A stretch of DNA of 7,425 bases from a virus (lineage: Duplodnaviria > Heunggongvirae > Uroviricota > Caudoviricetes): the IMG/VR virus record IMGVR_UViG_2734482594_000019; one strand, written 5' to 3'. The notes beneath the pieces were generated by a model, which saw only the letters and a program-made list of their open reading frames with translations, searched no databases and was not told the origin of the DNA. Every line of letters begins with the position of its first letter. Position 1 is the stretch's first letter. A program made the translations under genes and the position numbers. Positions 5,848-6,944 of this stretch are shown here, piece after piece.

Positions 5848-6342
5848 TCAGTGCCGTAGCTGTGTCAGAACAAACCTANNNNNNNNNNNNNNNNNNNNNN
5901 NNNNNNNNNNNNNNNNNNNNNNNNNNNNNNNNNNNNNNNNNNNNNNNNNNNNNNNNNNNNNNNNNNNNNNNNNNNNNNNNNNNNNNNNNNNNNNNNNNNN
6001 NNNNNNNNNNNNNNNNNNNNNNNNNNNNNNNNNNNNNNNNNNNNNNNNNNNNNNNNNNNNNNNNNNNNNNNNNNNNNNNNNNNNNNNNNNNNNNNNNNNN
6101 NNNNNNNNNNNNNNNNNNNNNNNNNNNNNNNNNNNNNNNNNNNTCTTGATTTGATGGGCATACAGACGGATATCCTCACTAACATCAGAAGTACGTTCAG
6201 ATGAACTCACATACTGTGTCTCTATTGCTTTATCGGAGTAATATGATGTACGGTCATGATAATTTGTCGATACAGCATCAGTGCACCCGATAATAATCCC
6301 ACTAATAATCAACGTAAGAATTGATGCGCTACGAAAACCCAT
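5848..6342 (-). CDS. Putative lipoprotein, function unknown; body and 3' end hidden by the masked run 5879-6143
   Basis: ATG at 6342-6340 with SD GAGGA 5 nt upstream. Signal peptide MGFRSASILTLIISGIIIGC with lipobox IIGC. The visible 66 N-terminal residues are Ser/Thr/Tyr-rich. The 5848 end is taken from the ORF track and cannot be verified across the Ns. Confidence 0.5.
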   Translation of the reverse strand: MGFRSASILTLIISGIIIGCTDAVSTNYHDRTSYYSDKAIETQYVSSSERTSDVSEDIRLYAHQIKXXXXXXXXXXXXXXXXXXXXXXXXXXXXXXXXXXXXXXXXXXXXXXXXXXXXXXXXXXXXXXXXXXXXXXXXXXXXXXXXXXXXXXXXXRFVLTQLRH

Positions 6343-6371
6343 TTTTCCTCACATATGTCATATAGTAAAGG

Positions 6372-6401
6372 ATTATATATACCGTTGTTTTGGACGCTCA
6401 A
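6372..6401 (-). promoter_or_regulatory. Candidate sigma70 promoter for the lipoprotein moron
   Basis: Minus-strand -10 TATAAT (plus 6372-6377) and -35 TTGAGC (plus 6396-6401) with an 18-bp spacer, about 30 nt upstream of the lipoprotein ATG. Confidence 0.3.
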
Positions 6402-6459
6402 ACAGCGAATCAGATCAAATAAAACGCACATTTGTTAACATTTACACAAAGTCTGCGTG

Positions 6460-6480
6460 GGATATTCTGAAAGAATATCC
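6460..6480. promoter_or_regulatory. Perfect 9-3-9 inverted repeat (GGATATTCT-gaa-AGAATATCC), operator-like
   Basis: Seen directly. It sits about 60 bp upstream of the candidate -35. No adjacent T-run on either strand, so it is unlikely to be a terminator. Confidence 0.3.
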
Positions 6481-6944
6481 ATAATGTGGAGAGAATCNNN
6501 NNNNNNNNNNNNNNNNNNNNNNNNNNNNNNNNNNNNNNNNNNNNNNNNNNNNNNNNNNNNNNNNNNNNNNNNNNNNNNNNNNNNNNNNNNNNNNNNNNNN
6601 NNNNNNNNNNNNNNNNNNNNNNNNNNNNNNNNNNNNNNNNNNNNNNNNNNNNNNNNNNNNNNNNNNNNNNNNNNNNNNNNNNNNNNNNNNNNNNNNNNNN
6701 NNNNNNNNNNNNNNNNNNNNNNNNNNNNNNNNNNNNNNNNNNNNNNNNNNNNNNNNNNNNCATCATCAGATGACTGGAAAAAAGGAAAACAAAAAATACT
6801 CATCATACAGTTTTGATTGCAGGGATGAGCCTGCTATGCACAATATGCAGAATATAAGCAAGATAAAAATATGCAGGCATATTATTTCGGATCTTGTTAT
6901 TAACACAACCTTTTTAATAATCATTTGGCATACAATAAACCAGC

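Follow-up and report, generated by a model that had tools for sequence, protein, structure and literature searches.

What do two adjacent genes for small lipoproteins do between the antiterminator and holin genes of a lambdoid prophage? The genes in question, denoted gene 1 and gene 2, lie in a 7,425-nt stretch of viral DNA (Caudoviricetes; IMG/VR record IMGVR_UViG_2734482594_000019; hereinafter the window) which, read on its minus strand, is the late region of such a prophage. Both encode a lipoprotein signal followed by domain III of TolA (TolA-III), the periplasmic docking hub for TolB, group A (Tol-dependent) colicins and the filamentous phage protein g3p/pIII. For this two-gene cassette we establish below how the genes are structured, the identity and fold of the domain that they encode, the conservation of its ligand-binding residues, the action of purifying selection, and the mobility and distribution of the whole; from these we infer an outer-membrane location, ligand binding, expression in lysogens and a protective phenotype. 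We give an even chance to the resulting proposal, namely that the two proteins are outer-membrane-tethered TolA decoys that provide tolerance to Tol-dependent colicins and filamentous phages.

Five runs of N mask parts of the window (Table 1). Without these, the window is 99.9% identical to the corresponding region of Escherichia coli SE11 (NC_011415.1, 1494746-1496601), and hundreds of further E. coli chromosomes likewise match its unmasked parts. The SE11 stretch (locus L001, the plus strand of which corresponds to the minus strand of the window) was used to read the masked content. The N-runs differ in length from the sequence that they hide in related loci (265 vs 262, 263 vs 250, 56 vs 292 and 170 vs 264 nt), and among 86 related loci none was found in which the hidden stretches equal the N-runs in length; open reading frames (ORFs) and distances read across the masks are therefore unreliable.

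Gene 1 encodes a predicted lipoprotein with a TolA domain III

The start of gene 1 is visible in the window, with an ATG at 6342-6340 and, 3 nt ahead of it, a Shine-Dalgarno sequence (SD), GAGGA, at 6350-6346. The signal peptide, MGFRSASILTLIISGIIIGC (also written MGFRSASILTLIISGIIIG, followed by C), has R4 in the n-region, the h-region ILTLIISGIII and the lipobox IIG-C20, with the Cys20 codon at 6285-6283 and Thr at position +2. An earlier reading of the window made from its letters alone (the sequence-only reading) had described a lipoprotein gene directly upstream of, and on the same strand as, the gene that it called TolA-like (gene 2), and had noted the lipobox IIGC, a Ser/Thr/Tyr-rich stretch and an SD. 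All these elements can be read in the visible sequence, and the arrangement holds, the two genes occupying the antiterminator-holin interval in a block that is closed by an intrinsic terminator. The end of gene 1 has to be revised. The 164-aa ORF ending at 5848 is an artefact of the mask at 5879-6143, the length of which is unfaithful and which hides residues 67-142 together with the stop codon (at about 5911-5913, accurate to ~3 nt). Both flanks of this mask are present in 42 related loci, and in every one of these the hidden stretch is 262 nt long and contains the stop codon. The near-identical relatives of gene 1, from E. coli SE11 and IMG/VR prophages, are 429 nt long and encode 142 aa in 42 of 42 cases; the unmasked SE11 protein is MGFRSASILTLIISGIIIGCTDAVSTNYHDRTSYYSDKAIETQYVSSSERTSDVSEDIRLYAHQIKSAIEKQFGDASKYSGKECTLRMHMAPNGLLLEVKRESGDLDLCREAMNAIKNADIPAPPSPEVYKVFQNGVLDFKP.

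The family of this protein, which could not be judged under the mask, emerges from homology and structure searches as TolA domain III. The signal peptide is followed by a Ser/Thr/Tyr-rich disordered tether of ~33 residues (~21-53) and by the domain itself (54-142). Residues 49-140 match the Pfam family TolA_C (PF06519; E = 2.4e-23, 82.6 bits, cut-off 25), the only other match in the Pfam scan being a weak one to TonB_2 (PF13103). Over residues 55-142 (88 aa), gene 1 is 58% identical to domain III of E. coli TolA (PDB 1S62, 3QDP, 2X9A and 1TOL), and the alignment extends through the final residue of both proteins. An AlphaFold model based on a 43-sequence alignment has predicted local distance difference test scores (pLDDT) above 90 for residues 54-142, with helices and strands in the same order as in TolA-III, and scores of 45-58 for residues 1-50. 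The folded part superimposes with a root-mean-square deviation (rmsd) of 0.5 Å on 2X9A_B (TolA-III from its complex with If1 g3p) and of 0.7 Å on 1TOL. In Foldseek (E = 2e-12), rmsd values range from 0.5 to 2.0 Å over 2X9A_B, 1TOL and 3QDR_A, and TonB C-terminal domains occupy ranks 10-22 among the structure matches. Given the TolA_C match, the ratio of nonsynonymous to synonymous substitution rates (dN/dS; see below) and the lipobox Cys20, which is invariant in 43 aligned relatives, gene 1 is beyond chance.

In RefSeq, gene 1 (WP_000506936.1, L001 6717-7145) bears the name “cell envelope integrity protein TolA” and the symbol tolA. This name over-transfers, because the full-length TolA profiles cover gene 1 only at their last ~95 positions (293-386 of 387 and 265-362 of 362) and the score against NF007065, 107.8 bits, is below the cut-off of 213. 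Gene 1 lacks TolA domains I and II and is sited between antiterminator and holin genes rather than in the tol-pal operon.

Gene 2 is a diverged paralogue

The GTG start of gene 2 is preceded at a spacing of 6 nt by the SD GAGGAG (5767-5772). The signal peptide read from this codon, MGLKKIVMLTFWVGFVAG followed by C, comprises K4 and K5, the stretch IVMLTFWVGF and the lipobox VAG-C19, with Thr at +2, and leads into a short Cys-containing tether. RefSeq places the start at an internal ATG 21 nt later, which leaves no charged n-region in the signal peptide; the GTG is favored because an 87%-identical copy on plasmid pO157 has ATG at that codon. Gene 2 also matches PF06519 (E = 1.3e-14, 54.6 bits, cut-off 25) and is ~28% identical to E. 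coli TolA-III. It shares 29% identity with gene 1, to which it can be aligned from residue 1, so that the two are paralogues. Both belong to PHROG 5772, annotated as “unknown function”, and both are annotated by homology in RefSeq. Judged by these identities, gene 1 is closer to host TolA than gene 2, the one originally called TolA-like. Since the +2 residue is Thr and not Asp in either protein, both are predicted to be moved to the outer membrane by the Lol system.

Ligand-binding surfaces

The beta3 strand of E. coli TolA-III (A415-K420) is the strand-addition site for g3p-N1, colicin N and the N-terminus of TolB, and TolA with the substitution D418P or K420P shows abolished binding and a full tol phenotype (PMC4339652; PMC8928145). 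The colicin A face consists of the strand L375-P380 and the cation-pi lysines K368, K379 and K396 (PMC3365938). Residues of the two phage proteins were mapped by transferring the alignment to E. coli TolA numbering. At the end of beta3, where TolA has L417 D418 F419 K420 P421, gene 1 is identical and gene 2 has F417 D418 M419 R420; the C-terminus thus reads VLDFKP in gene 1 vs PLDFKP in the host, and GFDMRG in gene 2, with D418 and beta-forming residues retained. The colicin A strand is LLEVKR in gene 1 and ALKIST in gene 2. Among the three lysines, K368 is His in gene 1 and Glu in gene 2, and K379 and K396 are both kept in gene 1 and replaced by Ser and His, respectively, in gene 2. The cysteines that form the disulfide in TolA (C363-C388, E. 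coli numbering) are kept in both proteins and are invariant in the alignments. By this mapping, gene 1 looks like a faithful mimic of TolA-III on both ligand faces, and gene 2 appears to retain the C-terminal strand edge only, with the colicin A face lost.

These patterns bear on a reading in which the two proteins are envelope or host-interaction morons that have nothing to do with Tol ligands, the TolA-III/TonB-like fold being a generic periplasmic binding module. Such proteins might bind another outer-membrane protein or peptidoglycan, or block the receptor or the injection of tailed phages in the way of Cor and Llp, siphophage exclusion lipoproteins that target outer-membrane receptors. 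The fold is indeed shared with TonB C-terminal domains, which bind many partners, and the weak PF13103 match and the loss of the colicin A face in gene 2 are in line with this possibility. Yet the 58% identity of gene 1 to TolA-III, inclusive of both mapped faces, is hard to explain if Tol ligands are irrelevant, and we consider this reading quite unlikely.

Purifying selection

The dN/dS ratio of gene 1, measured against the diverged variant of strain 2011C-3911, is 0.33 (0.29 for the domain alone), and that of gene 2 against the pO157 copy is 0.12 (0.08 for the domain alone). Both genes are under purifying selection. It might still be asked whether the cassette is a decaying or neutral passenger, that is, a captured tolA fragment that has no current function, as could be suggested by the RefSeq label, which is simply TolA, and by several frameshifted or truncated copies in the databases (P0010, P0015, P0024-P0045). 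The dN/dS range of 0.08-0.33 argues against this, as do the addition and conservation of a lipoprotein signal, the intact start, SD and terminator, the presence of the cassette at ≥99% identity in 771 genomes and the existence of a large family of short lipoprotein TolA-III proteins (both described below). A passenger without function is, in our estimate, very improbable.

A proposed role as TolA decoys

E. coli TolA combines domain III with a transmembrane domain I and a long helical domain II, in place of which genes 1 and 2 have a lipoprotein signal and a disordered tether. Since domains I and II are missing, these proteins have no coupling to the TolQR motor and no link to the proton motive force. 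The combination of a ligand-competent TolA-III with a flexible tether and a lipid anchor that has no Asp at +2, and without the motor-coupling domains, points to competition with native TolA. Under the decoy proposal, the proteins would be positioned just beneath the outer membrane, at the place where g3p-N1 and the translocation domains of colicins first appear, and would trap these ligands in dead-end complexes. The lysogen would thereby gain tolerance to Tol-dependent colicins and resistance to filamentous phages. With both ligand faces in gene 1 and only the strand edge in gene 2, the two proteins may cover different ligands.

Titration of this interface in vivo has two precedents. For exported TolAIII, colicin tolerance was reportedly described by Levengood-Freyermuth in 1993. 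Cells that export TolAIII also become leaky (PMC6195910). In the reciprocal arrangement, periplasmic pIII-N1 sequesters TolA, with the result that the cells tolerate colicin A and take up phage 10^4-fold less (PMC10424213).

Transcription of the cassette

The letters of the sigma-70 promoter proposed in the sequence-only reading, TTGAGC-18-TATAAT, are present at 6401-6372. The site matches the consensus at 10 of 12 positions, but sites of this kind are not enriched in the region (11, vs 7.0 ± 2.5 in shuffled sequence). No base of it differs among the SE11, Qin-like and mEp460 contexts, which are the three with the 99% cassette. In the P0007 lineage (91% identical) the -10 element is TGTAAT; the 66-67% lineages have unrelated DNA upstream of the gene and lack the candidate promoter.

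The segment 6453-6497, the upstream end of the interval given in the sequence-only reading, is no promoter element and is the 3′ part of a gene for an STnc100-family small RNA (sRNA; RF02076). This visible part includes a hairpin at 6464-6484, and the remainder is under the mask at 6498-6760. In cmscan, the STnc100 gene scores 86.6 bits in SE11 (L001 6420-6606; gathering threshold 47) and 114 bits in loci L006 and L002. The copy in the window lacks the family-consensus U-tract after the 3′ hairpin, so that transcription may read through into gene 1. STnc100 genes flank the TolA-like genes in every context (further loci L005 5468-8419 and L090 3704-5061), with a single, upstream copy in the SE11 context and in the Qin-like one; 2011C-3911 has five downstream, and P0007 has two downstream in addition to one upstream.

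A terminator near 5213-5239 had been noted from the letters; its hairpin and T-run are confirmed at 5214-5239, between gene 2 and the holin gene essD. The earlier view of the cassette as a unit inserted into the late operon stands insofar as this is a portable block with its own terminator (see below) and a candidate promoter. A strong terminator before the holin gene would be expected if non-antiterminated transcription enters the cassette. Transcription in the lysogen would probably start from a promoter inside or just upstream of the cassette, with the terminator after gene 2 barring non-antiterminated transcription from the holin gene; after induction, the Q-antiterminated late transcript could certainly express the cassette. 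A published record of 32-fold induction by ciprofloxacin of a “TolA” gene of CP-933O (PMC11125564) was considered and set aside, as the gene is a tail fibre gene according to that paper's own table.

In the spacer between genes 1 and 2, no terminator-like fold was found (fold z-score -0.19). The spacer contains a perfect 12-bp palindrome, GCTAAATTTAGC, which overlaps a weak promoter-like site, CTGACA-17-TAAATT, that matches 9 of 12 consensus positions. Similarity to the plasmid copies of gene 2 begins 30 nt before the start codon, downstream of both the palindrome and the promoter-like site. Gene 2 may be controlled separately through this palindrome, with the latter as an operator.

Distribution and mobility in prophages

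A block of 1.4 kb that comprises STnc100, gene 1, gene 2 and the terminator (1421 bp, L001 6420-7840) is present at ≥99% identity in 771 of the 5,426 complete E. coli genomes (14%). An IMG/VR scan with the family alignment recovered near-identical E. coli copies only, adding no new diversity, and provided context statistics over 80 prophage loci. In the lineage of the window, gene 2 follows gene 1 in 76 of the 77 loci with sufficient sequence, and essD comes after the lipoprotein pair in essentially every locus. The location is always the Q-holin slot, across five or more contexts. In the flanks, antiterminators of two unrelated Q families, DUF1133 and Qin-type, occur in mixed combinations with two lysis modules, one with rrrD and the other with ydfR-rrrQ, and the cassette behaves as a portable unit. 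The sequence shared with phage mEp460_ev081 begins at the 5′ end of the STnc100 gene.

Diverged lineages of gene 1 (91% and 66-67%) stand by themselves, and in every case the site is the interval between Q and the holin gene. Copies similar to gene 2 also occur alone, on plasmids (see below); genes 1 and 2 are therefore not an obligate pair. In the 2011C-3911 and P0028 contexts, the gene 1 variant is closely preceded by tRNA genes and is followed by nanS-p-type esterase genes, which is the position of stx in Shiga toxin (Stx) phages; in 2011C-3911, STnc100 follows the variant at ~100 nt. Similarly, STnc100 follows stx2 at 75 nt (PMC12370729). A tRNA scan detected no tRNA genes in the Q-holin interval of SE11; such genes are present in other contexts.

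Stand-alone TolA-III on plasmids and in sequence clusters

Copies similar to gene 2 (87% nucleotide identity) are found on ~600 E. coli and Shigella plasmids, the three examined being of IncF or IncI/K types. On a pO157-type plasmid, the copy (L004 4815-5246) comes after psiB-psiA-hok and before toxB; that of an IncI/K-type plasmid (L088 3079-3510) directly follows the relaxase gene. The pili encoded by IncF and IncI plasmids are the receptors of TolA-dependent filamentous phages (Ff and If1, respectively). On ColRNAI plasmids of Klebsiella, a lipoprotein TolA-III (MRLIPFILLALCSPLLLTA, followed by C) is encoded immediately ahead of a protein that has a signal peptide and a TonB C-terminal domain; in p1_020030 (L003 4908-5641), the two genes overlap. 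This pair adjoins genes for a klebicin (a bacteriocin), immunity and lysis, and the whole block is present on 238 plasmids, mostly of the Klebsiella ColRNAI type. In cloacin-type relatives, the place of the TolA-III/TonB pair is taken by an Exc2-family lipoprotein or by proteins K and L. The company of bacteriocin genes and the occurrence on plasmids that encode pilus receptors argue for incoming colicins and filamentous phages as the targets under selection.

A search with gene 1 of 1.84 billion cluster representatives yielded 316 relatives. Among the best 150 of these, 71 are 100-190 aa long, and 44 of the 71 begin with Met and contain a lipobox-like Cys; ordinary signal peptides are present in several others. 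Stand-alone exported TolA-III is, to judge from these clusters, a large and diverse class and not a one-off.

Possible modulation of the host Tol-Pal system, and arguments against decoys

The location of the cassette brings up a different role, in which the two proteins are late modulators of the host Tol-Pal system that titrate the TolB N-terminus from TolA and so aid the release of phage. The Q-antiterminated transcript would yield both in large quantity upon induction. The outer membrane would be uncoupled from the cell wall and inner membrane, with vesiculation or leakage that assists its breakdown, and the benefit would accrue to the phage at lysis, not to the lysogen. Consistent with this, the cassette lies in the late operon directly before the holin gene, with essD next in essentially every locus; the TolB-binding strand is fully conserved in gene 1; and the diverged lineages at the stx slot have no recognizable promoter of their own, like stx2, which depends on late transcription. 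Moreover, a passage in PMC6195910, which cites Wan and Baneyx (1998) and Levengood-Freyermuth (1993), relates that exported, signal-sequence-bearing periplasmic TolAIII makes E. coli leaky. However, close relatives of gene 2 and other lipoprotein TolA-III genes reside on IncF, IncI and ColRNAI plasmids, which are non-lytic, a strong terminator stands between the lysis genes and the cassette, a full holin-endolysin-spanin set is already present in the phage, and the affinity between TolA and TolB is weak (~40 µM; PMC4339652). We regard a role at lysis as unlikely.

Several considerations nevertheless weigh against the decoy proposal. Strand addition proceeds via the backbone and is promiscuous, so that conserved residues are weak proof of any particular ligand, and the beta3 strand also binds host TolB, such that the proteins could act on the host Tol-Pal system and not on incoming toxins. 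Because the leaky outer membrane produced by periplasmic TolAIII is harmful, a prophage would need to restrain it. The candidate promoter is at chance level and is not conserved across lineages, and expression might be late-only. The cassette occurs in only 1 of 50,697 sequenced phage records (mEp460_ev081), and neither protein has a match in PADLOC-DB 2.0 at E up to 0.1. A full-text search, the coverage of which leaves out most subscription journals, found no study of prophage- or plasmid-encoded TolA-III lipoproteins.

Features of the window

The coordinates of the cassette and of its surroundings are collected in Table 1. Along the minus strand, the features are, in order, the 3′ end of a Q-like antiterminator gene of the DUF1133 type, terminators, the two lipoprotein genes, a terminator, the holin gene essD, the lysozyme gene rrrD, Rz/Rz1, trkG and a ParB/Srx gene.

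Table 1. Positions in the window of the cassette, its signals and neighboring features
Feature	Position	Strand	Description
Gene 1	5911..6342	-	142-aa predicted outer-membrane lipoprotein; unmasked sequence from SE11 L001 6717-7145 and 41 further loci
Intergenic spacer	5761..5910	-	150 nt between genes 1 and 2
Gene 2	5365..5760	-	131-aa predicted outer-membrane lipoprotein, GTG start, diverged TolA domain III
Promoter-like site TTGAGC-18 nt-TATAAT	-35 6396-6401, -10 6372-6377	-	candidate cassette promoter, consensus match only
STnc100-family sRNA gene (RF02076)	6453..6639	-	directly upstream of gene 1; upstream end projected from SE11, approximate
Intrinsic terminator	5214..5239	-	AGCTCGC-TACG-GCGAGCT then TTTTTAT; 7 pairs, 5 G-C (terminator scan)
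Spacer palindrome	5836-5847		perfect, 12 bp
Weak promoter-like site in spacer	5840-5868	-	CTGACA-17-TAAATT
essD	4898-5113		holin gene
trkG	2345-3820	-	potassium transporter gene
Hydrophobic ORF	6766-6978	-	70 codons, unannotated
Terminator-like hairpin	~6931-6956		upstream of hydrophobic ORF
Masks (N-runs)	672-921, 1217-1386, 5879-6143, 6498-6760, 7072-7127		

Two further features of the prophage were observed. The full-length trkG gene, for a potassium transporter, lies between the Rz/Rz1 spanin genes and the ParB/Srx-domain gene; it is common to at least 20 IMG/VR loci and is a second accessory gene of this phage type. An unannotated, very hydrophobic ORF of 70 codons (MTNRLFRRFFLGWFIVCQMIIKK...) is preceded by AAGACA-18-TATAAT and then by a terminator-like hairpin, AACCGCC-TGTT-TAGGCGGTT, with a T-run. 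This promoter-plus-terminator arrangement could be the late promoter with its first terminator.

Comparison with known systems

With domain III of E. coli TolA (~325-421; 1S62, 1TOL, 2X9A, 3QDP/3QDR), gene 1 shares the family, the fold, the disulfide pair and the LDFKP strand, and of the colicin A face it retains the strand together with two of the three lysines; the host gene is part of the tol-pal operon, whereas genes 1 and 2 are on a prophage. Laboratory constructs of periplasmic TolAIII are likewise free copies of domain III that compete with native TolA. These constructs are soluble, overproduced and artificial, whereas the domains of the cassette are natural, diverged, predicted to be lipid-anchored and present in two versions.

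Among phage proteins, Llp of T5 and Cor of phi80, N15 and the mEp phages are small outer-membrane lipoproteins that inactivate FhuA and block the entry of other phages and colicins. The cassette proteins, too, are small phage-encoded lipoproteins and are proposed to protect the carrier cell, but there is no sequence relationship, and inactivation of FhuA differs from the proposed mimicry of a periplasmic import hub. The g3p/pIII protein of filamentous phages shuts Tol import through the same interface, acting from the opposite partner: g3p titrates the host hub, whereas a copy of the hub encoded by the cassette would titrate the ligands and leave host TolA free. Finally, stx1 and stx2 of Stx phages occupy the same lambdoid Q-S slot downstream of Q, together with tRNA genes and STnc100; there the cargo is a toxin, whereas here it is a pair of envelope lipoproteins.

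Implications

A well-motivated hypothesis is that the cassette represents moron-encoded protective lipoproteins in which a captured domain of a host import hub is the active part. More broadly, and somewhat short of an even chance, enterobacterial mobile elements (lambdoid prophages, IncF/IncI plasmids and small bacteriocin plasmids) may widely carry outer-membrane-tethered or secreted TolA and TonB C-terminal domains as decoys that constitute an undescribed class of immunity. If such a class exists, the carrier would be protected from filamentous phages and from entire colicin groups without any change of receptor, and the pair in the window, carried by 14% of complete genomes, would be its most common representative in E. 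coli. Should the proteins be decoys, this would be a case of natural hub mimicry, in which the host protein that the invaders need is copied instead of a receptor being modified. If the Tol-Pal system is perturbed instead, prophages would be linked to vesicle production and envelope leakiness.

Natural E. coli vary widely in sensitivity to colicins and filamentous phages, and receptor mutations explain little of this variation. A cassette that is present in one complete genome in seven, and to which genes on hundreds of virulence and resistance plasmids (pO157 among them) are related, would explain such varied sensitivity in a simple way and by a transferable cause. This is of relevance to antimicrobials based on colicins, bacteriocins or phages and to the annotation of genomes, as in the case of gene 1.

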